From: a virus
Taxonomy: Duplodnaviria > Heunggongvirae > Uroviricota > Caudoviricetes
IMG/VR virus record: IMGVR_UViG_2740892274_000005
Reading direction: 5' to 3' (one strand)
Length of the DNA: 44,169 nt
The notes under the pieces were generated by a model. It saw only the letters and a list, made by a program, of their open reading frames with translations, ran no database searches and was not told the DNA's origin. Within the stretch, counting starts at the first letter, position 1, and every line of letters begins with the position of its first letter. Made by a program: the position numbers and the translations under genes. Below are positions 4,830-42,575 of this stretch, piece after piece.

Positions 4830-4936
4830 AAGCCCGTATTTTACCGGGCTTATTCTGTGACAACCAGGATAAAGAGATTTACAGCATGGTCAGGGAGGTC
4901 AGCAGCCGCTTAGGCTGTCTATAGCGCGGCGATTTT

Positions 4937-31507: not shown

Positions 31508-31798
31508 TTACCCCCTTGCGCGTGGTTTCTTCACACCCGGAACGGTGGCGCGGCCTTCCGCCACATCCTGACCCCGGCCGGTCAGTTCAGCGATGAAATA
31601 ACCGTTAACAAGCGTGCGCTTACGCACCAGTCCCTGCTCGGCAAGCCAGGCAATGTGGGTATGAACGGTGTCGCGGGACACGCGGTGACCGTAATCATCC
31701 AGGCAGTCCTGAAGCACGGATTCGCCCAGTTCGCCGTTGTAATCCGCCAGCGACCGCAGAATGACAAGACGCTGATCTTCAGTAATGAAATCACTCAT
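31508..31798 (-). CDS. Mu gp26-like small protein (possible winged-helix)
   Basis: 96 aa, MSDFITEDQRLVILRSLADYNGELGESVLQ.... Assigned by synteny. Confidence 0.5.
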   Translation of the reverse strand: MSDFITEDQRLVILRSLADYNGELGESVLQDCLDDYGHRVSRDTVHTHIAWLAEQGLVRKRTLVNGYFIAELTGRGQDVAEGRATVPGVKKPRARG

Positions 31799-32102
31799 TG
31801 TGTTTTTTCCTTACAGCCTGCTCCAGCAGCAGTTCGTTCTGATGGGAGACGGATTTCAGGGTGGCATTGGTGGCCTTAAGCTCACCGCGCAGGGTGGTGA
31901 TTTCGATATTGAGTCTGTTCACCTCCTGCTGCGTGGGCAGGCCGGAAATCCGGCTCTCCACCCGCTCAACCCGGTCGGAGAGTTTTTCAAAGGCCTCGCG
32001 GGGGACAAAGGTTTTGCGCATCAGCGCCATGAAGATCCCCCCGGCTGTGGCCGTTGCCGACAGGATCGGCACGACATAATCTTTAACGATGCTGACCCAC
32101 AT
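31791..32102 (-). CDS. Mu gp25-like membrane protein (lysis-associated in Mu)
   Basis: 103 aa with an N-terminal hydrophobic helix (VVPILSATATAGGIFMALM) and a coiled C-terminus. Confidence 0.5.
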   Translation of the reverse strand: MWVSIVKDYVVPILSATATAGGIFMALMRKTFVPREAFEKLSDRVERVESRISGLPTQQEVNRLNIEITTLRGELKATNATLKSVSHQNELLLEQAVRKKHNE

Positions 32103-32310
32103 GACCGGCCTCCATGATGTTCTGGCAGTTCACACAACGGATGGCATCCGGCACGGCAACCAGACGGGCAGCCGGAATGTCACCCCCGCAGTCCGCGCAT
32201 ACACGCCTGCCCGGTGTCTCCGCCACCCGGCGCTTACGTGTCAGCCGGTCACAAAGGGCGCGTTCTGTTGCACGCTCCATGACTGCCTGAGCACAATCTG
32301 AATCATCCAT
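32083..32310 (-). CDS. TraR/DksA-family C4 zinc-finger protein
   Basis: Start taken at the internal ATG 32310 (MDDSDCAQAV...). Contains ...CADCGGDIPAARLVAVPDAIRCVNCQ..., the four-Cys zinc finger of the TraR/DksA family. Confidence 0.7.
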   Translation of the reverse strand: MDDSDCAQAVMERATERALCDRLTRKRRVAETPGRRVCADCGGDIPAARLVAVPDAIRCVNCQNIMEAGHVGQHR

Positions 32311-32320
32311 ACCTTTTTCC

Positions 32321-32692
32321 TTACTTCGTCTTTCCTGCCGGAACAGCAGTCGTTCCGGCCATATCAGTAAATTCATGCTGTCGCTGTGTCTCCAGACGGC
32401 GGATGCTGGCCTTGTCCACGTTGCAGTTTTTAATCACCGCCAGCAGTTGCAGGTTGTAAGTGACCGATGCACCAAACGTGAACGGCTGCGGCGCGGGAGG
32501 GACCAGGCAGTCAGCCAGCCATTCAGCGGGGATCGGCACCGGCTTCACCGGCACGTATTTCACAGACGGCCCGCCGCACCCGGTCAGCCACATCATCAGG
32601 CACAGGCACAGCGGCAGCAGGCACCGTTGCCAGTGACCGGCGGACAATGCTCTGCTGTTCCTCGCTGTGCTGCATGTTCTGCTGTTTTTCAT
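32321..32692 (-). CDS. Outer-membrane spanin (Rz1-like lipoprotein), start uncertain
   Basis: Frame overlapping the 3' part of the i-spanin gene and extending beyond it. Lipobox LTGC followed by a Pro-rich mature region (CGGPSVKYVPVKPVPIPAEW...PPAPQP). ATG at 32692 with AAGG upstream. Confidence 0.5.
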   Translation of the reverse strand: MKNSRTCSTARNSRALSAGHWQRCLLPLCLCLMMWLTGCGGPSVKYVPVKPVPIPAEWLADCLVPPAPQPFTFGASVTYNLQLLAVIKNCNVDKASIRRLETQRQHEFTDMAGTTAVPAGKTK

Positions 32693-32873
32693 TCGTGGCC
32701 GCCTTGCTGATTTGTGAAATGAGTTGCAGGGTGCGTTGCTGGTTTGCCAGCACCAGACGGGCTTCGTCCCGTTCACGCACAAGCACATGATTATTGTCCT
32801 CAAGGCGCTGCGTCTTCTGGTGCATTCCCCATACCACGGCAGCCAGCACGCTCATCACCCCCAGCGCCGCCAT
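32523..32873 (-). CDS. Inner-membrane spanin (Rz-like), start uncertain
   Basis: ATG at 32873 with GGAGG upstream gives MAALGVMSVLAAVVWGMHQKTQRLEDNNHVLVRERDEARL... (N-terminal TM helix then coiled coil). The tracked ORF extends 57 codons further upstream. Confidence 0.55.
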   Translation of the reverse strand: MAALGVMSVLAAVVWGMHQKTQRLEDNNHVLVRERDEARLVLANQQRTLQLISQISKAATNEKQQNMQHSEEQQSIVRRSLATVPAAAVPVPDDVADRVRRAVCEIRAGEAGADPR

Positions 32874-32985
32874 ACAGCCTCCGGCAATCAGGGCCGGTAA
32901 GGGATTGTTCACCGCAGACACAGCACACCCCGCAGCAGCACAACGGCACACAGCAGCGCAATCATGAGCGGTCGCCAGAAGCGGT

Positions 32986-33486
32986 TCAGACTTTCGGCAA
33001 ATCGTAACGACATAACCATTCATCCGCCGAACGGCGGGCCTCAAGACCGGGGAGTTTTACCCCCTTTGAATAAATCCAGCGGATATACTGCTTACAGGAC
33101 GCGGGCATCTGCCCGGCATTGATAAGGCGCAGGAGCGTGGAGTTGCGAAAGTTCGTTTCACCGGCCCAGAAAATCCAGGAGGCCAGCGCCACCGTCTGAC
33201 CACGGGTAAGCGGCACCTGAACATGACGATCGATAGCCGCAAAGGCCCATTTCATGTCCTTTTCCAGCAGCTCCAGACACTCTTCATCAGTTTTTGTCAT
33301 CCCCGGTTTCACATCCGGGCCGGTATGGCCGTAACAGATGGTGGGGGTGCCGGTGGGATCAATGTACGTGGTGTTTTCTTTCCCTTCCCAGTAGCCGGTG
33401 TAGTGCGTGGCAATGGTGAACGTCCCGGCTCCGGCCAGAACAAGGGCAATCAGCTTTTTACGCAGGGGTGCGGGGAGTTTTGGCAT
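32986..33486 (-). CDS. SAR endolysin (T4-lysozyme-like)
   Basis: 166 aa; weakly hydrophobic Gly/Ala-rich N-terminal SAR segment (KKLIALVLAGAGTFTIA) followed by a catalytic E...D...T arrangement (YWEGKENTTYIDPTGTPTICYGHT). Confidence 0.85.
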   Translation of the reverse strand: MPKLPAPLRKKLIALVLAGAGTFTIATHYTGYWEGKENTTYIDPTGTPTICYGHTGPDVKPGMTKTDEECLELLEKDMKWAFAAIDRHVQVPLTRGQTVALASWIFWAGETNFRNSTLLRLINAGQMPASCKQYIRWIYSKGVKLPGLEARRSADEWLCRYDLPKV

Positions 33487-33980: not shown

Positions 33981-34050
33981 ACCCGCCTCCGGTCATCATT
34001 ACACAGGGCAAGTTTAAAATAAAAATCCCGCGCTGTGGCGGGATTTGGGG

Positions 34051-34563
34051 TTAACGGGGGAATGATTTTTCATACAGCCTGCAAACACGCTCATAACTCA
34101 TCACTGCACGTTCCGACATATCCAGGGCTGCCAGCATTTTGCGGCGGTGCCAGCGTTTGAGACGCTCCAGCACATCAGAGGCCAGCGCGGGTTGTTGCTC
34201 CAGCCACTGCCAGTTAGCCACACCTTCGCCGTCGTTCTGCGCGGCCGTCTGCGATTTCACCCAGCGGTTAAGGGCCGTTTCCCCGCCATCAGAGATAAAT
34301 CCCTGCCGGTGCATCACTTTCCAGATGGCGCGAATTTTGGCGGTCACCGTACCCGGTTTTAAGGCCCGGTTAACCGGCTTCTGACGCACTTTAAAACCGC
34401 GTTTTTTGAAAACATCCAGCACGCGGGATAACTCACCGGGTGACATATCACGGCAACTGGATTTGCCGGTGGCTGCCAGCAGCGCGGATGTATAGGTATC
34501 ATGGTCAAGCTGTAGATCGCGTTTTGCGACATGTATTAAGGTAATCAGGGAAGCGCGATTCAT
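34051..34563 (-). CDS. gemA: GemA-like regulatory protein (Mu gp16 family)
   Basis: 170 aa immediately upstream of the Mor/C gene. GGAG RBS 8 nt upstream of the ATG. Confidence 0.7.
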   Translation of the reverse strand: MNRASLITLIHVAKRDLQLDHDTYTSALLAATGKSSCRDMSPGELSRVLDVFKKRGFKVRQKPVNRALKPGTVTAKIRAIWKVMHRQGFISDGGETALNRWVKSQTAAQNDGEGVANWQWLEQQPALASDVLERLKRWHRRKMLAALDMSERAVMSYERVCRLYEKSFPR

Positions 34564-34575
34564 TATCGTGGCTCC

Positions 34576-34605
34576 ATAAAAAATGGGCGGTGTTACCGCA
34601 CCGCC
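34576..34605 (-). terminator. Rho-independent terminator on the minus strand, immediately upstream of gemA
   Basis: Stem GGCGGTG / CACCGCC (34586..34592 and 34599..34605) with a 6-nt loop, followed on the minus strand by CAUUUUUUAU. Lies between the low-GC cassette and the gemA RBS. Confidence 0.6.
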
Positions 34606-34633
34606 ATGTCAATTAACATAAAAGGAAAAATCT

Positions 34634-34873
34634 ATGTCAGATATAAAAAATGCACTTGATGTTGCCGCATTCACAATGGCTGGAAATCTTATGGTAACCC
34701 TGTTCGATAAGGGGCTGATTTCCCGTGAGGAGGCAATACATATTATCAATCTCGCTCAAAAAAACTCTACCCCGGAAAATGCAGAAGATATCCAGGATGG
34801 CTCATATATTAATACCGACTGGCATTTCGACAATCTCCGGGCCTGTATGGGGATTACCGCTGAAAAAGATTAA
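34634..34873 (+). CDS. Hypothetical 79-aa protein on the opposite strand within the early region (low GC)
   Basis: ATG with AGGAAA 6-7 nt upstream. Converges with 34854..35141, with a 20-nt 3' overlap. No family recognised. Confidence 0.5.
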   Translation: MSDIKNALDVAAFTMAGNLMVTLFDKGLISREEAIHIINLAQKNSTPENAEDIQDGSYINTDWHFDNLRACMGITAEKD

Positions 34874-35141
34874 AAATTTTTGCATAATGTTCAGATGTAA
34901 GAATTGCTGAACCATCAACACCGAGCCTACGGCGAACGTATTCCTCGCGGGCTATTTTATTATCCAGAGATACAGCATCCTTAATCAGGTTAATCTCCCG
35001 CTCCATTATCAAAAGGGCTTCTCTGGCTGCAAGATTTTCTTTTATCGCATATTCGATAATGTCCCGCATACGTTCAAGCATGCCGATTTTAGCCAGTTCT
35101 TCGTCGATAGATTTAGGCGCAAATTTGATTTCTTTTTCCAT
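34854..35141 (-). CDS. Hypothetical 95-aa helical protein
   Basis: ATG at 35141 preceded by AGGA with an 8-nt spacer, 1 nt after the stop of the zinc-ribbon micro-ORF. MEKEIKFAPKSIDEELAKIGMLERMRDIIEYAIKENLAAREALLIMEREINLIKDAVSLDNKIAREEY.... The tracked ORF starts at an upstream GTG. Confidence 0.55.
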   Translation of the reverse strand: MEKEIKFAPKSIDEELAKIGMLERMRDIIEYAIKENLAAREALLIMEREINLIKDAVSLDNKIAREEYVRRRLGVDGSAILTSEHYAKIFNLFQR

Positions 35142-35142
35142 A

Positions 35143-35286
35143 TTATTCATCCTCACAATTTATACATGCAGTGTCGTCGCCCATATCGCAGTGGTTACAT
35201 TTTATCTCACCACAATGTGGGCACTCTTTCAGATACTCCGGGTCCTCATTTCCACAGGTGGGACATTCAACAATTTGCTCATCCAT
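35143..35286 (-). CDS. Zinc-ribbon micro-protein (47 aa), absent from the ORF track
   Basis: Hand translation: MDEQIVECPTCGNEDPEYLKECPHCGEIKCNHCDMGDDTACINCEDE. Two CxxC pairs plus a CxxC/C cluster. ATG at 35286 overlaps the upstream stop (ATGGATGA); stop TAA at 35145..35143. Confidence 0.55.
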   Translation of the reverse strand: MDEQIVECPTCGNEDPEYLKECPHCGEIKCNHCDMGDDTACINCEDE

Positions 35287-35611
35287 TATGTATCCCCTGT
35301 AATTCCGGCAAGGCCGAAAGATGGCACCAGTGCGTCACCTGTCCGTCCTCATCTTCAAGGCAGGCTCCGGTTTCTTCATCAATAAAAAAGCCTTCATACC
35401 CCATATGGCCGATGCGCAGTTCCTGTTGGTCACCATACTGAACAATCAGCACGACAGCCTCCATATCAGGCGGAAATGCGTCATCCAGTGAATGCCAGGG
35501 ATAACCGCGCAAATCCCCGAAATAAACGCCGGTCAGCGTTCCGCCACAGAGCGGCATTCCGGCGGCACACACAAGAGGTTCATCTGATTCAACAAATAAG
35601 GTCGTTATCAT
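35279..35611 (-). CDS. Hypothetical 110-aa acidic protein
   Basis: Coupled to both neighbours by 4-nt and 8-nt overlaps. No family recognised. Confidence 0.55.
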   Translation of the reverse strand: MITTLFVESDEPLVCAAGMPLCGGTLTGVYFGDLRGYPWHSLDDAFPPDMEAVVLIVQYGDQQELRIGHMGYEGFFIDEETGACLEDEDGQVTHWCHLSALPELQGIHNG

Positions 35612-36159
35612 GGCGTTAACTCCCGTAATACAGCGTCCTCGGCAGTCCGGCGACGGTAATAAACTGCGTGAGCAGAATGTTCAGATATTCCAAACTTTTC
35701 GCCAATTTCCCGGAATGACAGACGGCGTGGGTAATCGGAATCACGCAGCTCACGTATAAGACGTACATCATCATCAGATATGCGCGTGCCGGGGCGTAAC
35801 TCTCCGCACTTTGTTAATCCAGCACCAATCATTCCTGCCCGACATCTGACAGAATCTTTATTACGTCCGAGATATTCTCCCATTTGCTGGCAGGTCATTG
35901 TTCTGGCATTTTTTCGAATAAACTTATCTTCATCAGGTGTAAATCTTGGGTGTTTATATTTCAGTAACTCCGGGTATGAACTGCGCAATACACCAGTCCG
36001 GTTATATACAGCCCAGACAGTTCTTTTTATTCTGGCAGCAATATCCTTAACCGGGGTGGATGAATAAAGCGCAATCAGCAGCGCATCTTCTTCAGGTGTC
36101 CACGGACGGACATGAGCGGGGGCGCGACCTTTTAGTCCCATGGGTTGTAATTTCATCAT
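35608..36159 (-). CDS. Protein with three tandem Myb/SANT-like HTH repeats
   Basis: Repeat 1 RPWTPEEDALLIALYSSTPVKDIAARIKRTVWAVYNR; repeat 2 PRFTPDEDKFIRKNARTMTCQQMGEYLGRNKDSVRCR; repeat 3 ISDDDVRLIRELRDSDYPRRLSFREIGEKFGISEHSAHAVYYRR. Confidence 0.6.
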   Translation of the reverse strand: MMKLQPMGLKGRAPAHVRPWTPEEDALLIALYSSTPVKDIAARIKRTVWAVYNRTGVLRSSYPELLKYKHPRFTPDEDKFIRKNARTMTCQQMGEYLGRNKDSVRCRAGMIGAGLTKCGELRPGTRISDDDVRLIRELRDSDYPRRLSFREIGEKFGISEHSAHAVYYRRRTAEDAVLRELTP

Positions 36160-36162
36160 GCA

Positions 36163-36678
36163 TCACCCCCTGACTCGCTTTTCAGCAGCATAAAACTCAT
36201 CAGACAGTATTTCGGTCATTTTCTGTTTTGCGGGTTTTACGCCGCACTGAAGGTAAATCACATCGTCAACGCAGAACCACTTCACAGGGCCAAACAGGAT
36301 TGCCGAGAAATCAATACCCAACCAGAACAACAGCGCATCGGTTCTGGCATACGTGACGGGCGAATATTCACGCCACAGACTGTTCAGTTCATCAGAGGCA
36401 ACACGCAGGGTTTTAGGGATACGTGATGTGCGCGGTGTGCAGCTCCAGCCATTCGACGCAGTCGGTTTTCGCCATAAGTCGCGATGAAAAGGATATTTGT
36501 CCTCCGTAAAACGCAGTCCCTTAAAGTAAAATCCACTGATACCGGATACAAATACCGACCGGCACGCAACATTCAGCACGGCCTCAAGGCGTTTTGCCTC
36601 ATCCTTAACTTTCTGGCAGTCCTGCTGGTATTTTTGCCACGCAGCCAGCGCGGAAGGGTTTGATGTTTTAAAGAACAT
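36163..36678 (-). CDS. Hypothetical early protein (171 aa)
   Basis: In the early operon between gam and the accessory cassette. No family recognised. Confidence 0.5.
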   Translation of the reverse strand: MFFKTSNPSALAAWQKYQQDCQKVKDEAKRLEAVLNVACRSVFVSGISGFYFKGLRFTEDKYPFHRDLWRKPTASNGWSCTPRTSRIPKTLRVASDELNSLWREYSPVTYARTDALLFWLGIDFSAILFGPVKWFCVDDVIYLQCGVKPAKQKMTEILSDEFYAAEKRVRG

Positions 36679-37211
36679 TACGCCACCTCCGCAGATATCC
36701 CGGCAGGCGCTGCTGTCCGGTCAACAATCAGGTAGCGCAGAACATGTTCAGTGATATTCCAGCCGCTTAAACCGCAGATAATGACGCCCAGGCGTATGTC
36801 GATATACGCCATCACAAACTGGGGCACGCCTTCTTTCATGGCCTGCTCATCAACTTCAGCCACCACATAAACGGTTTCACAGGTCAGAACGCCCTGAGCA
36901 AATTCCCACGCCATCGACGGAATATCATGCCCCTCAATCCATGGCAGGGATTTTCTGAAGCCGCACCACTGAACATCATCAGCCGCAGATTCCTGGCTGC
37001 ATTTGCGACGAACCGGCTGCACCGGGCGGGGACGCGGAATATCATAAAAACCGTTACATTCCGTCAGCACGCCTGCATCAACCGCATCACGCAGAAAATA
37101 AACCATGGAGGATGGCGGCATATTCATTTTTTCAGCCAGTACACCGCAGGTCAGGCGGCCATAAATACACAGCCAGTTTTTAACCCCTTCAAGCACTTTT
37201 GCATCAATCAT
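36678..37211 (-). CDS. Hypothetical early protein (177 aa)
   Basis: Follows gam after a 145-bp AT-rich gap. No family recognised. Confidence 0.5.
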   Translation of the reverse strand: MIDAKVLEGVKNWLCIYGRLTCGVLAEKMNMPPSSMVYFLRDAVDAGVLTECNGFYDIPRPRPVQPVRRKCSQESAADDVQWCGFRKSLPWIEGHDIPSMAWEFAQGVLTCETVYVVAEVDEQAMKEGVPQFVMAYIDIRLGVIICGLSGWNITEHVLRYLIVDRTAAPAGISAEVA

Positions 37212-37356
37212 GATTTATTTCCCCACCACATTATTAATGACGATATAAACGTATTTCATATTTCTTAACCCTTATTTTCTGTTTTCAGGCGCAAGCAGTC
37301 CCCTGACGCGAGCGCCATAATTAAAATGAAGTGATATTTAATTGATTAATGCGGTG

Positions 37357-37887
37357 TTATTTATTCAGTCCGGCGTCCTGTTCAAAAGGCTCGACATAAA
37401 AACTTTCAGCGCCTTTATTCACCTTGATACCGGCAATGCCTTTCACAGCATCCGGCTCCGCCAGGACGGCTTCCTTGTTCACTTCCTCTTTCGTGCGGAT
37501 GAAACGCTCAAGCCCCATACGGCGCAGCATTTCAATCACACCTTCCACATCACGGCTGACGCTGCATGATGGCGTTCCCAGCCGCCATGACACCGTTCCG
37601 GTGGTCAGATTGGCTGTTTTGGTTTTGCCGCCGTTCGTCAGCTCATCACGGTTGGTTTTGCACCAGTCCTGAATCCCTTTAAAAAGCACTTTGATTTGCT
37701 TTTTAAGATTTTCAATCTGCGGCGTATAACGGGCGGTGATTTCTGCCACTTCGTCATTCATCGCCGTTTCCAGGCGCAGCGCCTCTCGCTGAATATCTCC
37801 CAGGGTGCGGATATCACGGCTGACTTCTTCCCGGGTCTGCGGTGCCGCCTCGGCTGCGGCCTTTAATTTTGTAACGCGTTTAGCCAT
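37357..37887 (-). CDS. gam: Host-nuclease inhibitor Gam (Mu Gam, Ku-like)
   Basis: MAKRVTKLKAAAEAAPQTREEVSRDIRTLGDIQREALRLETAMNDEVAEITARY...NRDELTNGGKTKTANLTTGTVSWR... is near-collinear with Mu Gam as I recall it. Confidence 0.85.
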   Translation of the reverse strand: MAKRVTKLKAAAEAAPQTREEVSRDIRTLGDIQREALRLETAMNDEVAEITARYTPQIENLKKQIKVLFKGIQDWCKTNRDELTNGGKTKTANLTTGTVSWRLGTPSCSVSRDVEGVIEMLRRMGLERFIRTKEEVNKEAVLAEPDAVKGIAGIKVNKGAESFYVEPFEQDAGLNK

Positions 37888-37898
37888 TTTGTTTTTCC

Positions 37899-38192
37899 TT
37901 ATTGCAGTGTGCCTGATGCTTTATGCACGCGGTGGCGTTTAATGATGGCATCCGCTCCAAAAGACTGTGCAGATGCCTGAAATTCCGCTGAGAGAAACTG
38001 AATAATTGCAGGACTGTGATACTGGAGAATACTTGCATAAACGTCACAGAGTGACGTCGGCCTGTTATCCGTATCACGTTCTGTTTTCACATCCACTCCA
38101 ATCTTTTCATGCACTTCAACACAGTCATTGCCTGCCAACTTTTCGTCATGCGAAACATGATTAAATTCAAAAATAACGCGTACTTTGCTCAT
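37899..38192 (-). CDS. Small early protein, paralogue of 38197..38469
   Basis: Start taken at the internal ATG 38192 (MSKVRVIFEFNHV...). Shares the N-terminal pattern MSKV-R-IFE-F/Y with the adjacent gene. Confidence 0.5.
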   Translation of the reverse strand: MSKVRVIFEFNHVSHDEKLAGNDCVEVHEKIGVDVKTERDTDNRPTSLCDVYASILQYHSPAIIQFLSAEFQASAQSFGADAIIKRHRVHKASGTLQ

Positions 38193-38196
38193 GGAA

Positions 38197-38469
38197 TTAC
38201 CCCTGTTGATTAAATTCATTACCGTTAATAACCCCGGAAGCCATGCCTCTGTCTTTCATGAATGCACTGGCTTTCATTGCCACAAACTCTGCGAAGTTTC
38301 TGCTTTCTGCCAGCATAACCACCCCAAAAATCATGGCGGGTCCATTATCTTTCTTCTTTATTCCGGTTGAACGTATATCCAGACTTACCCCTCTGTGCGT
38401 GCTGCCATCAGAGTTTTTGCAGATAACATCTTCCTTGTATTCGAAAATAATGCGTACGACTTTACTCAT
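38197..38469 (-). CDS. Small early protein, paralogue of 37899..38192
   Basis: 90 aa, MSKVVRIIFEYKEDVICKNSDGSTHRGVSLDIRSTG.... Tandem with its paralogue. Confidence 0.5.
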   Translation of the reverse strand: MSKVVRIIFEYKEDVICKNSDGSTHRGVSLDIRSTGIKKKDNGPAMIFGVVMLAESRNFAEFVAMKASAFMKDRGMASGVINGNEFNQQG

Positions 38470-38747
38470 CCTCTGGTCCTCGTTCTGTTTGGATAACTGA
38501 CCCGGCGTCTAACCTCACGGCAGAACCGAATCATGGCATTAAAGGCTTCTTCCTCCGTCACCGCTTCCGGTATCCCCGGAACCAGTAACTGCTCCTGTTC
38601 ATCACGTCCATGACGCGCCATAACCTCAATCACATGCCGTACCGTGGCAGGCTTTCCGGCAACTATCGGCAATGCACCTTCCGGCAGGACGTAACCAAAC
38701 TCAATAAGACCACTCGACCACGCCCATGCAATGAGATTTTTTTTCAC
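38466..38747 (-). CDS. Hypothetical early protein (93 aa)
   Basis: Coupled by a 4-nt overlap to the downstream gene. No family recognised. Confidence 0.5.
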   Translation of the reverse strand: MKKNLIAWAWSSGLIEFGYVLPEGALPIVAGKPATVRHVIEVMARHGRDEQEQLLVPGIPEAVTEEEAFNAMIRFCREVRRRVSYPNRTRTRG

Positions 38748-38748
38748 C

Positions 38749-39015
38749 TCACACCTCCCAGTAAACCGTGCAGCCGCTGATGCGGGTGGCCTTCACACGG
38801 CGGCGCAGGCCGTTGGTCTGTATGGTGATTTCAATTTCACCGGTTCCCTGCACGTTGCCTACCGGCGGCGTGGTTTTCAGTGCAAAACGTTGCGGATAGC
38901 GCTTACTGCGTTCCAGTACCGCACCGGCAAGTTCGGTCAGACGGCGCGCGCTGTTCAGGGAGTCGAATAAATTCATTTTGTTACCGCAGGATTGCATATT
39001 CATATAACACCTCAT
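38749..39015 (-). CDS. Hypothetical early protein, start uncertain
   Basis: 88-aa tracked ORF with several candidate Met starts (MNMQ.., MNLFDS..). No family recognised. Confidence 0.4.
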   Translation of the reverse strand: MRCYMNMQSCGNKMNLFDSLNSARRLTELAGAVLERSKRYPQRFALKTTPPVGNVQGTGEIEITIQTNGLRRRVKATRISGCTVYWEV

Positions 39016-39243
39016 TTAGCTGACTTGTTTCGCACCAACAGAACGGCATATTCCGCTGTAAACTTCTGTCGCACCTTCGCGATCAAGTCCGGCAGATATC
39101 ACCATTCGTGTGCGGTCATTAAATTCAAAAAGTAAATCGCCACATTCTTTATTTTCGGCCAGTGAAATCACCTTCACGTTATCGAAATTAACCAGGTAAA
39201 AGCGTCCGTAAATATCAGGAATATTAAATACCGCCATAATCAC
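39016..39243 (-). CDS. Small early protein immediately after B (position of kil in Mu)
   Basis: 75 aa, overlaps the B stop by 4 nt. Assignment to kil is positional only. Confidence 0.4.
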   Translation of the reverse strand: MIMAVFNIPDIYGRFYLVNFDNVKVISLAENKECGDLLFEFNDRTRMVISAGLDREGATEVYSGICRSVGAKQVS

Positions 39244-40181
39244 ACCTGTGAGAGTAATTCAGGGTTGGTATAAACCTCTTTAAAGGCCGCATTAATATGT
39301 TTTTCTGTCAGCGCCGCGCCTTCACCGCTGGCGGTGAGCCACGCCTGGTTAAGCGTATGTGTCAGAACGCGTAACGCTCCCGGCTTTTCAGCGATAGCCT
39401 GCATGACGGCCAGCTCGGCCTCACCACTGATCCCCCACGCCATGGCAATGGCCAGCACATCCGCCTTTTTGGCCTTGCGAAGTTGTTTTGTACGGGCAAG
39501 ACGGCTGAACAGGCGCGATAAATCATCAAAGGCGCGGCGTCCACCTTTAAACAATCCGCGCGGGTTACCAATAAGCACCATCCCGATCCCCGTGGCGTCC
39601 TGAATTGCCCGGAGTTGCTCCAGACCGTCAATACCAAGATGATCCGCCTCATCCACAATCACCAGTCCACGCGTTCCCATCAGGCGACGGCGGATGGCGC
39701 GGGATAATGCCCCTTTGTTCGCGCGGGTGTAATCAATCCCCAGCGCATCGGCCAGCTCCAGCAGACACTCCGTGACGCTGGAGTGCGCGGGTGACAGGGT
39801 GATCATCCAGGTGTTTGGTTGCTCCTGGCAGTAATTACGGGCAGTGGCCGTTTTACCCACACCCGGTACGCCCACAATAACGTTAATACAGCCCATCAGG
39901 CGAACCGCCTGAAACAGTGCGCGCAGCTCCTGGACTGTCTGAGTTTCCACAAACTGCGGCGGTTCCGGCAGTGCGCTTTGTTTATTCCAGTTCTCATACC
40001 AGGAGCGCAGGGAAGCAGCCACAGCAGCGTTATCGCCTTTATATTTTCCCTTACGGAAAGCCGATAATGTGCCGTCGGAAATTCCCGCCTCTCTGGCGAT
40101 GGCATACTGCGTCAGTACGCCGCCATCAATAAGTTCATCAATGGTCTTGATTACATCGTTAATATCGGTCATATTATTCAC
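39240..40181 (-). CDS. B: DNA transposition ATPase MuB-like
   Basis: 313 aa; ...LPEPPQFVETQTVQELRALFQAVRLMGCINVIVGVPGVGKTATARNYCQ...WMITLSP...LVIVDEADHLG... is collinear with Mu B as I recall it (Walker A GVPGVGKT). Confidence 0.88.
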   Translation of the reverse strand: MNNMTDINDVIKTIDELIDGGVLTQYAIAREAGISDGTLSAFRKGKYKGDNAAVAASLRSWYENWNKQSALPEPPQFVETQTVQELRALFQAVRLMGCINVIVGVPGVGKTATARNYCQEQPNTWMITLSPAHSSVTECLLELADALGIDYTRANKGALSRAIRRRLMGTRGLVIVDEADHLGIDGLEQLRAIQDATGIGMVLIGNPRGLFKGGRRAFDDLSRLFSRLARTKQLRKAKKADVLAIAMAWGISGEAELAVMQAIAEKPGALRVLTHTLNQAWLTASGEGAALTEKHINAAFKEVYTNPELLSQV

Positions 40182-40254
40182 CTCGCTTGAGACAGCATTC
40201 TCCGAGACTGAAACCTCAAATAACCTGAGTCACCCCTCGGGTTATTTTTTTATT

Positions 40255-42342
40255 TCAGGCCAGCGGATCACTTTCTTTTAATTTCGCTTCGAGCAGTTGC
40301 AATCCCCGCTGGAAATTACGCTCGTATTCTTCATCAGGTTCATCGTCAGCGACCGGTTGCTGAACGGTCACCGTATTACCCACAGGGCGGTATATGTTTT
40401 CCAGCCAGGGCTCCTGCGGCTTGTGCTCCAGCACGTTGACAACCTCATCCTCGGCATCACGGATTTTTTCCTCTGCGCGTTTACGCATGCCTTTAAGGCG
40501 CTGCTGCTGTTTGTAGTATTCCGCGCTGACAGGGAAGGCTTCGCGTTTATTGCCGTCCCATACCGCCTCGCAAATCACGCTGCCATCCGGGCGGCGCACG
40601 GTAATTCGTTCGGCATCATGAATGTCATAGCTGATAAGTACCTTACGGCCATGCTCGTCACGCAGCTCGGGCGCGTAGTAAATATTATTCAGCCAGCGTA
40701 TTTCACAGCGTCTTACAGGGCGCTCCACCATCGGCCGGAACATATCCCGCAGTTCAACATCGGACAGCCATTCAATTTCCGTGTCCTCTTCCGCCAGGCG
40801 TTTTTTTCTGAACTCCGCCGGGCTGTAATGTTTACCGTTCGGCTTCATGGGTAATTCATCGTGCGGCCGGTTGTTGTACCACTCAACACCGTCACGAATG
40901 GCATCAATCAGTTCAGACCAGGACGGTAAATCACGCATCGCTGACTGCTGCCGGGCGTTCAGCCGTTTGCCCTGTTGCAGGGCACTGAATGCCGAGCGTA
41001 AATCGCGGTTGGTTTTACGTAACGTCTCGCGATCTGCTCCTTTCCCGAAATAGGTGCGGTATTTACGGGCTATGCGCATCGGTAATGTGCGGTTAAGCCG
41101 TTCGATAATGCCCCGTCCCTGCGGATTACCGGCAATCCCTGTCGGGTGATTAATCCCCAGTCGTGGCAGTATCCCCACAATCTCCTTATCCAGGACGTCG
41201 GCGGTTTCCCCGGAGCCATTATCCGAGTAATACAGAAACGGTTTGCCATGATGGCGAATACCGTGCTGTATGGCACCGGCTACGGCGAAAACATTTTCAG
41301 CCAGGTCAAGGCTCCAGCCCACCACAAAGCGCGTGCCACCGTCGATAACAAAGGTCACTTCCGGTGCGAATGGCCGCCCGTGAACCGGGTGCGCGCATTT
41401 CAGCTTCATGCCGTGACCGTCACCAATCCAGACATAATTCACCGGCATTCTGGACCAGTCGCGGCGCGTGAATCCCTCAAGCTGACGGTATTCACTGCCA
41501 GTTACCCGGCCTTTTTGTTTCACCACTTCCGGCAGTTTCTTCATTGCGCGGCGAATGGTGTCATAAGAGGGCATGATATCGAGCATATAAGGCTCATCAG
41601 CGTGCCGGTGCTGCCATTCAGCAACAAAATCCTCGTAAGCCTCGGTCATTGGTCGGCCGTTTGACTGGCGATACTGCGCCAGAAATTCGGGCAGCCAGTT
41701 AATATCTTCGGCTTTTATTTCCTGGCGTTTACCCGGTGCCAGTAAAAGCAGGCGTTCAGCGGCGTTCTGTGCCTTGTTAAAGGCCGCAATCCAGCGTTTC
41801 AGCGTGATTTCACTCAACGCGCGGCTGTTTCCCTTTTTGGCGTTCGCCGTCTCAACCATTGCCACAATGCGCTCGTCCAGTTGTGATCGTGCCAGGCTGT
41901 TAACGAGGAACCGGATAGCTTTAGCGCAGCTGAAACCGGGTTGTTGCGTGAATTTCAGCACCTCACTGACGATCGCAATGCGTGCGTCTGCCACCTGGCG
42001 CTGGTTTTCAGTCAGGGCATTGAGGCGTTCGACCATCAGTTGTGGTGATCCGCGATATGCCTCCACCGCATCAACCACGGCAGACGAGCGTCTGGCCTTT
42101 GTCACCACCGGAGCCGGTGATTCATCGGCTTTTTGCGTCATCAGTTGCAGGGCATAACGTTCGCGTAATGCCTGCTGTGTCACTTCAGGTAAACAGTCAA
42201 TGCTGTATTCAAAACCTTTAGCGCCTTTCTTGCGGCGTCTGCTGGTTTCGCTGGTTGCATACTTCCTGATTGAATAGCGAACGCCTTGCTCCGTTCCCGG
42301 CATCCCCGGTAATCCAACCAGTTCTTTAACTGAAGCAAACAT
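40255..42342 (-). CDS. A: Mu-type DDE transposase A
   Basis: 695 aa directly downstream of ner and upstream of B. Large multidomain protein of the size and position of MuA. Confidence 0.88.
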   Translation of the reverse strand: MFASVKELVGLPGMPGTEQGVRYSIRKYATSETSRRRKKGAKGFEYSIDCLPEVTQQALRERYALQLMTQKADESPAPVVTKARRSSAVVDAVEAYRGSPQLMVERLNALTENQRQVADARIAIVSEVLKFTQQPGFSCAKAIRFLVNSLARSQLDERIVAMVETANAKKGNSRALSEITLKRWIAAFNKAQNAAERLLLLAPGKRQEIKAEDINWLPEFLAQYRQSNGRPMTEAYEDFVAEWQHRHADEPYMLDIMPSYDTIRRAMKKLPEVVKQKGRVTGSEYRQLEGFTRRDWSRMPVNYVWIGDGHGMKLKCAHPVHGRPFAPEVTFVIDGGTRFVVGWSLDLAENVFAVAGAIQHGIRHHGKPFLYYSDNGSGETADVLDKEIVGILPRLGINHPTGIAGNPQGRGIIERLNRTLPMRIARKYRTYFGKGADRETLRKTNRDLRSAFSALQQGKRLNARQQSAMRDLPSWSELIDAIRDGVEWYNNRPHDELPMKPNGKHYSPAEFRKKRLAEEDTEIEWLSDVELRDMFRPMVERPVRRCEIRWLNNIYYAPELRDEHGRKVLISYDIHDAERITVRRPDGSVICEAVWDGNKREAFPVSAEYYKQQQRLKGMRKRAEEKIRDAEDEVVNVLEHKPQEPWLENIYRPVGNTVTVQQPVADDEPDEEYERNFQRGLQLLEAKLKESDPLA

Positions 42343-42344
42343 AA

Positions 42345-42575
42345 TTACGCGACCTTACGAATGTAGCGGCTGGGCCAAATCTCCTCGGGCGGCACCCCCA
42401 GGCATTCCGCGATAATCCCCTCATACTTGGGAACATGGCGGTATACCGCGTTGTACAGATTGTTCTGACCCACGCCAGCTTTACGGGCCAGCGCCCTCAT
42501 GCTTCCTTCTCTGGCTCTGACTTCCCCCAAAATTCTTTGAGGATGCCAATCAGGCTTAACTTCATTTCTCGCCAT
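42345..42575 (-). CDS. ner: Ner-like DNA-binding regulator (Ner/Nlp family)
   Basis: 76 aa; ...WHPQRILGEVRAREGSMRALARKAGVGQNNLYNAVYRHVPKYEGIIAECLGVPPEEIWPSRY... matches the Ner pattern (...IWPSRY). First gene of the early operon. Confidence 0.85.
   Translation of the reverse strand: MARNEVKPDWHPQRILGEVRAREGSMRALARKAGVGQNNLYNAVYRHVPKYEGIIAECLGVPPEEIWPSRYIRKVA

Follow-up and report, generated by a model that had tools for sequence, protein, structure and literature searches.

The window analysed here, the whole 44,169-nucleotide stretch of IMG/VR virus record IMGVR_UViG_2740892274_000005, is a segment of an Escherichia coli chromosome that carries a complete-looking Mu-like prophage of about 38.6 kb (approximately positions 4919 to 43552). 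Among the early genes of this prophage lies one that encodes a 183-residue protein built from three tandem helix-turn-helix (HTH) repeats. We present evidence that this protein is a homologue of the T5 DNA-binding protein D5 and of Mu gp9, and that it exists in E. coli prophages as two alleles whose differences are concentrated in the predicted recognition helices. The gene and its parts are the following.

35608-36159, minus strand: coding sequence, with stop codon, of the 183-aa three-repeat HTH protein (list of open reading frames (ORFs) and translation)
36166-36171, minus strand: Shine-Dalgarno-like AGGGGG, 6 nt 5' of the ATG (direct sequence reading)
36112-36159, minus strand: N-terminal peptide, aa 1-16, consensus M-x-L-x-P-M-G-x-P-G-K-C-P-A-H (family alignments A1 and A2)
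35974-36111, minus strand: repeat 1 (R1), aa 17-62, Myb-like three-helix HTH with the signature WTPEEDALL (Pfam, c-Myb alignment, structural model)
35821-35952, minus strand: repeat 2 (R2), aa 70-113, Myb-like HTH, FTPDEDKFI (hhalign with R1, c-Myb R3 and Mu gp9)
35650-35790, minus strand: repeat 3 (R3), aa 124-170, classical HTH, ISDDDVRLIRELRD ... FREIGEKFGIS ... (sub-threshold Pfam matches, hhalign, entropy)
35611-35649, minus strand: conserved C-terminal tail, aa 171-183, R-T-A-x-D-A-x-x-R-E-L-x-P (alignments A1 and A2, structural model)
35620-36020, minus strand: allelic block, approximately aa 47-183 (sliding identity, synonymous divergence, association scan)
35608-35611, minus strand: ATGA overlap between the stop codon of the HTH-repeat gene and the start of the next gene, 35279-35611 (sequence, ORF list)

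The prophage interrupts a gene for an SgrR-family transcriptional regulator, which is split in the identical RefSeq record into two pseudogenes, one for each half, and it is bounded by com/mom at one end and by repressor/ner/A/B at the other. Its early genes run from B through five small ORFs, Gam (37357-37887), a protein bearing the Mu Gp11 C-terminal domain (36678-37211) and a homologue of Mu gp12 (36163-36678, 55% identical) to the HTH-repeat gene, which is followed by ORF110 (35279-35611), homologues of Mu gp13 and gp14, an opposite-strand gp15-like ORF, GemA, Mor and lysozyme. Because of this gene order in the direction of early transcription, the HTH-repeat gene is assigned to the early, semi-essential region. 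The gene is tightly packed against both neighbours: the stop codon of the upstream gene (36163-36165) falls between the AGGGGG and the ATG, ending 3 nt before the start codon, and the ATGA arrangement at 35608-35611 is compatible with translational coupling to ORF110. In its sequence context the protein is identical to RefSeq WP_000977059.1, from a 100%-identical E. coli locus, and the 1.5-kb region around the gene is found in 232 of 5,426 complete E. coli genomes. The gene evolves as coding sequence, with a ratio of nonsynonymous to synonymous divergence (dN/dS) of 0.24-0.26 against its second allele.

The earlier note on this DNA had proposed an early-region protein made of three tandem Myb/HTH-type repeats of about 45 aa each. 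Profile comparisons, an AlphaFold2 model and the alignment to c-Myb bear out this architecture, with a repeat period of 53-54 aa (W20, F73, I127) in place of the shorter one. On the single sequence, self-alignment gave weak support (R1-R2, p=0.012; R2-R3, p=0.03; R1-R3, not significant). We gathered 30 full-length orthologues, down to 31% identity, by exhaustive profile search; a shallower family alignment backed the R1-R2 pair only, and the 30-member alignment was needed for all pairs. With slices of the resulting family profile, hhalign related R1 to R2 with 98.9% probability (E 3e-17), R2 to R3 with 91.4% (E 9e-7, all three helices covered) and R1 to R3 with 85.8% (E 5e-6, HTH core only). 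The AlphaFold2 model (mean predicted local distance difference test score, pLDDT, 80.7) consists of three three-helix bundles, with helices at 22-32/37-43/48-59, 75-84/90-97/101-110 and 129-140/149-156/160-169, followed by a C-terminal helix predicted at aa 173-181 within the conserved tail. The predicted template modelling score (pTM), 0.46, suggests that the linkers between the domains are flexible.

Conservation is distributed unevenly over this structure. The predicted recognition helices of R1 and R2 are aa 48-59 and aa 101-110, and among the 30 orthologues the third helices vary more than any others; R3 has the most conserved scaffold of the family together with a variable third helix (aa 160-169, entropy profile). 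A few basic residues that belong to the third helices or follow them immediately are retained: in the close set A1, R54 and R170 do not vary and R107 hardly does, and R170 is still at 90% or more in alignment A2. The N-terminal peptide is conserved in Mu-like and P2-like orthologues (mean entropy 1.65 bits) and has a pLDDT below 50. The protein as a whole is basic (isoelectric point, pI, 9.9; 35 K+R versus 23 D+E), as are R1 and R2 (pI 9.7-9.8).

The two domain affinities named in the earlier note, to Myb/SANT domains and to sigma region 4, are divided among the repeats: as judged by profile matches, only R1 and R2 are specifically Myb-like, whereas R3 is nearer to sigma-70 region 4 and AsnC-type HTHs. 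The 183-aa sequence scores 19.7 bits with PF00249 and 16.5 with PF13921, against gathering thresholds of 24.4 and 22.9; 18 of the 30 orthologues match PF00249 at E <=0.01 (best E 2.2e-8), and the family profile aligns as a tandem pair with c-Myb R2R3 (profile positions 19-105, E 9e-8). R2 matches c-Myb R3 as well as the first repeat of Mu gp9. In common with Myb proteins, the family has tandem three-helix bundles of about 52 aa in which helices 2 and 3 form the HTH. The aromatic core differs: W20 alone is invariant, F73 is its equivalent in R2, and aliphatic residues face the second and third tryptophans of c-Myb, so that of the three regularly spaced tryptophans of c-Myb (1H88/1MSE) and WER (6KKS) only the first is kept. 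Two further differences set the phage protein apart from eukaryotic R2R3 Myb proteins, namely the additional third, non-Myb HTH and third helices that are the most variable in the family instead of the most conserved.

The best models for R3 are Sigma70_r4 (in 20 of the 30 members), AsnC-type, HTH_23 and HTH_38, and in the 183-aa protein itself R3 has sub-threshold Pfam matches to HTH_AsnC, HTH_10 and Sigma70_r4. Membership of the sigma-70 family was considered and rejected: R3 resembles region 4 alone, region 2 is missing, and the NCBIfam sigma70-ECF model scores 12.3 bits against a cut-off of 42.9. Membership of the AsnC/Lrp family was likewise rejected, the HTH_AsnC-type match (aa 130-164) reaching 18.8 bits against 27, with no RAM domain and no room for one. 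Since there is no ligand-binding domain, the NCBI name 'AsnC family protein' carried by relatives is a mis-transfer. In comparison with GcrA (5YIU), the protein lacks the C-terminal sigma-70-binding domain, and neither it nor its orthologues have a Pfam GcrA match. Among other tandem-HTH binders, the bipartite domains of the Tc3 and Mos1 transposases are similar in plan, and Cbp1 of Sulfolobus (2LVS), a CRISPR-repeat-binding protein, likewise carries imperfect HTH repeats on one chain that reads an extended DNA site. Cbp1 gave a profile match at E 1.5e-5 and was the top-ranked Foldseek match in the PDB, although at a non-significant E of 0.08; it differs in being an archaeal chromosomal protein from an unrelated context. 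No PADLOC defence-system model matched the HTH-repeat protein or its six neighbours.

The protein matches PHROG 323 ('transcriptional regulator, D5-like') at E 5.3e-53, aa 2-182 aligning with profile positions 80-256 of 319. The founding member of this PHROG is D5 of T5 (T5.118, YP_006946.1, 255 aa; E 1.2e-71 against PHROG 323), which is expressed early, as the HTH-repeat protein is predicted to be. Residues 71-252 of D5 are colinear with aa 17-183, spanning all three repeats (hhalign 97.4%, E 9.6e-12, 163 columns). The RefSeq note on D5 describes a DNA-binding protein that is required for DNA replication and late transcription and is involved in shutoff of earlier expression, and PMC12630848 attributes the role in replication and late transcription to McCorquodale et al. 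1979 (its reference 34). The two proteins are about 25% identical over the aligned region, D5 being 72 aa longer with an extra N-terminal segment. Moreover, D5 belongs to a virulent phage and is required there, whereas temperate Mu-like and P2-like phages have late activators of their own, Mor/C in the former and Ogr in the latter; because of these activators, the role of the HTH-repeat protein is probably accessory.

Within transposable phages the nearest counterpart is Mu gp9 (E8, NP_050613.1, 99 aa), a two-repeat homologue of R2-R3 (98.3%, E 1.6e-14, 28% identity, 92 columns). Like the HTH-repeat protein, gp9 falls in PHROG 323 and is encoded in the semi-essential early region; it differs in having neither the Myb repeat at the N-terminus nor the conserved peptide that precedes it, and in its location, since gp9 lies just upstream of gam and the three-repeat gene after gp12. 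In Mu, D108, SfMu and the Yersinia Mu-like phages gp9 is present and the three-repeat gene absent; the window has the three-repeat gene, and neither a paralogue nor a gp9-like ORF was found elsewhere in it. This complementary distribution hints at equivalent roles for the two genes. The earlier note had held that clear homology to a Mu early protein of established function would tell against its reading; this is only half the case, the homology to gp9/E8 being clear but no function of gp9 being established. The Mu semi-essential region comprises 14 ORFs, largely without assigned function, whose expression is harmful to the host (PMC3325207, PMC3820752).

Orthologues also occur in P2-like prophages, at 35-46% identity and between cox and replication gene A (for example, in Citrobacter phage Shae_phiSM and six IMG/VR contigs). 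The gene therefore moves on its own between lineages of temperate phages, and an early operon is its place in each of them. As a unit, the repeat is very widespread, with 11,611 cluster representatives at E <=1e-3, some of which have up to 11 tandem copies; four metagenomic proteins of 490-1570 aa (P0028, P0030, P0040 and P0161) consist almost entirely of 5-11 tandem WTxEED...GRT..AV..RA..LG HTH units. Many phage tandem-HTH proteins are present in BFVD. In Mycobacterium phage Thibault, gp103 joins two HTH repeats, as its non-catalytic part, to an HNH_3 nuclease domain, and its gene interrupts one for a methyltransferase. In the Thibault stretch in question (L054 1000-3130) the DNA methyltransferase gene is apparently split into short pieces (gp102, gp105), which are separated and followed by HNH endonuclease genes, that of gp103 among them. 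A scan of the genome_contigs set found no relative. The earlier note had considered three tandem HTH domains unusual for a phage early protein, an impression that PHROG 323, T5 D5, Mu gp9 and the BFVD proteins dispel; RefSeq already names the exact 183-aa protein 'SANT/Myb-like DNA-binding domain-containing protein'. It is thus a phage protein of an ordinary kind that databases already annotate, and its family is a PHROG with a characterised founder.

In E. coli Mu-like prophages the gene occurs in two forms, whose proteins are about 72-75% identical in a setting where the neighbouring genes are 91-100% identical. Sliding identity falls to 69-79% at the nucleotide level in the allelic block and is 93-100% in both flanks. 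Synonymous divergence (dS) is 0.86-0.97 in the block, compared with 0.16 in aa 1-46 and 0.03-0.27 in neighbouring genes, and overall dN/dS is 0.21-0.23. We scanned 40 related Mu-like loci for sites fixed between the allele groups: 75 such differences fall in 35600-36199, 71 of them in 35600-35999, compared with none in 36200-42199 and one in 34000-35599. (A few fixed sites also appear at 31600-33400, four of them in 31600-31799, where one group is covered by 5-6 loci only; these are probably a sampling effect.) As judged from these divergences, the two alleles are old and have been spread by recombination, and do not reflect recent rapid change. Each allele is paired with at least three different Ner (immunity-region) types, and neither is linked to a Ner type. 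Ner itself (window 42345-42575) occurs in very similar prophages as at least four types, with 100%, 43%, 37% and 36% identity to the Ner of the window, which indicates that the Mu-like clade holds several immunity types, freely reshuffled relative to the remainder of the early region.

Within the block, the differences between alleles are focused on the third helices, where 17 of 32 residues differ; among the 38 residues of helices 1 and 2 the number is 2-5 (Fisher p 6e-4 to 7e-6). The dN/dS ratio is correspondingly 0.56-0.72 in third helices versus 0.02-0.05 in helices 1 and 2; as the former values are below 1, positive selection is not demonstrated. The third-helix variation may reflect either changed DNA recognition or weak constraint in a protein that binds non-specifically. 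Since the scaffold helices are constrained and the third helices differ, the two alleles probably recognise different DNA sequences. That they are specificity alleles directed at a target outside their own prophage, which might be a rival phage of the Mu-like or P2-like kind, a satellite or some locus of the host, is a speculation to which we give little credence; if it were true, the gene would be a balanced determinant of conflict between elements and not a housekeeping regulator.

Taken together, these observations make it very probable that the gene encodes a D5-like, three-HTH, DNA-binding protein that is expressed early. The fuller explanation, an accessory D5-like early DNA-binding regulator that uses three recognition helices, is one that we favour with some reserve. 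The gene belongs to the early (Pe) operon and is transcribed with it; it lies in the semi-essential region, with gam/gp11/gp12 on one side and gemA/mor on the other. According to the proposal, its product would be a basic double-stranded DNA-binding protein in which two Myb-like repeats and one sigma-r4/AsnC-like HTH are held on flexible linkers. The three third helices would occupy successive major grooves of an extended DNA site, and binding would, as with T5 D5, modulate transcription, replication or both at an early stage of the lytic cycle, in a role that is accessory and not essential. Architecture, homologies, genomic position, purifying selection and allele structure are directly established, whereas DNA binding, the use of the third helices and the regulatory role are inferred. 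The early-operon position in both Mu-like and P2-like prophages counts in favour of this proposal. The fusion of two of the repeats to an HNH_3 nuclease in Thibault gp103 supports a DNA-targeting role for the module. Several points weigh on the other side. The 183-aa sequence itself stays below the Pfam Myb gathering score, and the relative orientation of the domains in the AlphaFold2 model is unreliable, given the pTM noted above. No candidate binding site was found: within 31.6-42.2 kb of the window no site co-varies with the allele, and the alleles reassort freely with Ner/immunity types. The variable third helices fit relaxed constraint in a non-specific binder equally well (dN/dS below 1). 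Finally, literature searches on Myb/SANT domains in prophages, D5-like proteins and Myb-like E. coli prophage proteins returned nothing on the family, and no experiments on the HTH-repeat protein, Mu gp9 or their close relatives were found.

The genes downstream of the HTH-repeat gene bear on a further proposal, made in the earlier note, that its product regulates the low-GC cassette said to begin directly after it. The cassette (window 34634-35286) consists of three genes.

35143-35286: Mu gp13 homologue, four-Cys zinc-ribbon-like (PHROG 5584)
34854-35156: Mu gp14 homologue (PHROG 6075)
34634-34873, plus strand: gp15-like ORF, on the strand opposite to the HTH-repeat gene (PHROG 32893)

The 4-nt overlap with the next gene is as that note described it; the gene overlapped, ORF110, has 51% GC, and the low-GC genes (40-44% GC) begin one gene later. 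ORF110 itself encodes 110 aa, matches PHROG 6925 and has no Pfam match; it is kept in most, though not all, related Mu-like loci and is absent from P2-like carriers. The cassette is a variable slot, occupied in about 11 of the 40 related loci. Because it comes and goes independently of the HTH-repeat gene, a dedicated regulatory tie between the two is unlikely.

The main rival to an accessory, site-recognising regulator retains the DNA binding and dispenses with the site: a protein that coats double-stranded DNA cooperatively and non-specifically, in the manner classically ascribed to T5 D5 in older literature, altering global transcription or replication or the host nucleoid through no defined operator, and whose third-helix variation would be a sign of weak constraint, not of changed specificity. 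Much of the evidence above is shared with it, including the colinear homology to T5 D5, the lack of a co-varying cis site near the gene, a third-helix dN/dS below 1, the conservation of the basic residues R54, R107 and R170, and the harm done to the host by expression of the Mu semi-essential region. We nonetheless consider it unlikely. Two old alleles persist side by side in near-identical prophages, and because their differences focus on the canonical base-contacting helices, this pattern is more easily explained by specificity than by neutrality. It is considerably less likely that the protein is an adaptor of the SANT-like or GcrA-like kind, whose repeats or conserved terminal peptides would dock on RNA polymerase sigma-70, or on another protein of host or phage, and redirect it. 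SANT domains have acidic third helices, unlike DNA-binding Myb domains, and R1 and R2 are as basic as the latter. The two-repeat module forms the non-catalytic part of an HNH endonuclease, and the GcrA domain that is matched is itself the DNA-binding one.

The same fusion raises the thought that the protein is a stand-alone remnant, or a trans-acting targeting subunit, of a homing endonuclease, with which weak PHROG matches to HNH endonuclease families, the insertion of Thibault gp103 (two repeats plus HNH_3) in a methyltransferase gene and the phage endonucleases among the BFVD structural matches would agree. This is very improbable, as a nuclease-free form of 180 aa with conserved termini is maintained under purifying selection in Mu-like and P2-like phages, down to 34% identity, and no nuclease gene is a constant neighbour. 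Regulation of the downstream cassette, for which only the closeness of the two and the ATGA overlap with ORF110 speak, is about as improbable: Mu has gp13-gp15 with no family member adjacent, its sole homologue, gp9, being located upstream of gam; the cassette is absent or replaced in most of the related Mu-like loci and occurs with either allele; P2-like prophages have the orthologue and none of the cassette genes; and the genes form a single operon, a scan for promoter-like sequences having found no site between the HTH-repeat gene and the cassette. The independent variation of the gp13-, gp14- and gp15-like genes thus speaks against the cassette regulator of the earlier note. The DNA mimic or decoy, also put forward there, has hardly any probability left. 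Known DNA mimics are strongly acidic, whereas this protein is net basic, as given above, and has an HTH fold; its acidic residues amount to short repeat starts (PEEDA, PDEDK, DDDV), which are the normal signature of Myb helix 1. The cassette-regulator and DNA-mimic readings are, in effect, essentially excluded.

This analysis extends the existing annotation in three respects: the protein is connected explicitly with both T5 D5 and Mu gp9/E8, its family is found in the early operons of P2-like prophages too, and its allele structure is described. It brings together three labels that are separate in the databases, 'SANT/Myb-like' in RefSeq, the mis-transferred 'AsnC family protein' and 'D5-like transcriptional regulator' in PHROGs, and it places gp9/E8, a semi-essential early ORF of Mu, in the same family as T5 D5. 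For that ORF a concrete hypothesis follows, in which DNA binding would affect the early-to-late programme or replication. A phage specialist is unlikely to be surprised by any of these results, and their value is mainly one of annotation; the pair of alleles with swapped predicted recognition helices does, in addition, constitute a natural experiment for specificity.

Some minor features of the prophage were recorded alongside. Two terminator-like GC-rich hairpins followed by T-runs lie on the minus strand, one at 34605-34586 between the gp13-15-like genes and gemA and the other at 34046-34023 between gemA and mor; the early transcript may be partitioned by them. At two other junctions of the early region, related prophages have additional DNA, with about 520 bp between gam and the gp11-like gene (window 36163-37356; L027 6355-6941) and, in L021 (9944-11462), about 1.5 kb between gemA and mor, and both junctions look like further insertion slots for accessory genes. 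A Gin-like recombinase is encoded beside the tail-fibre genes of the prophage.

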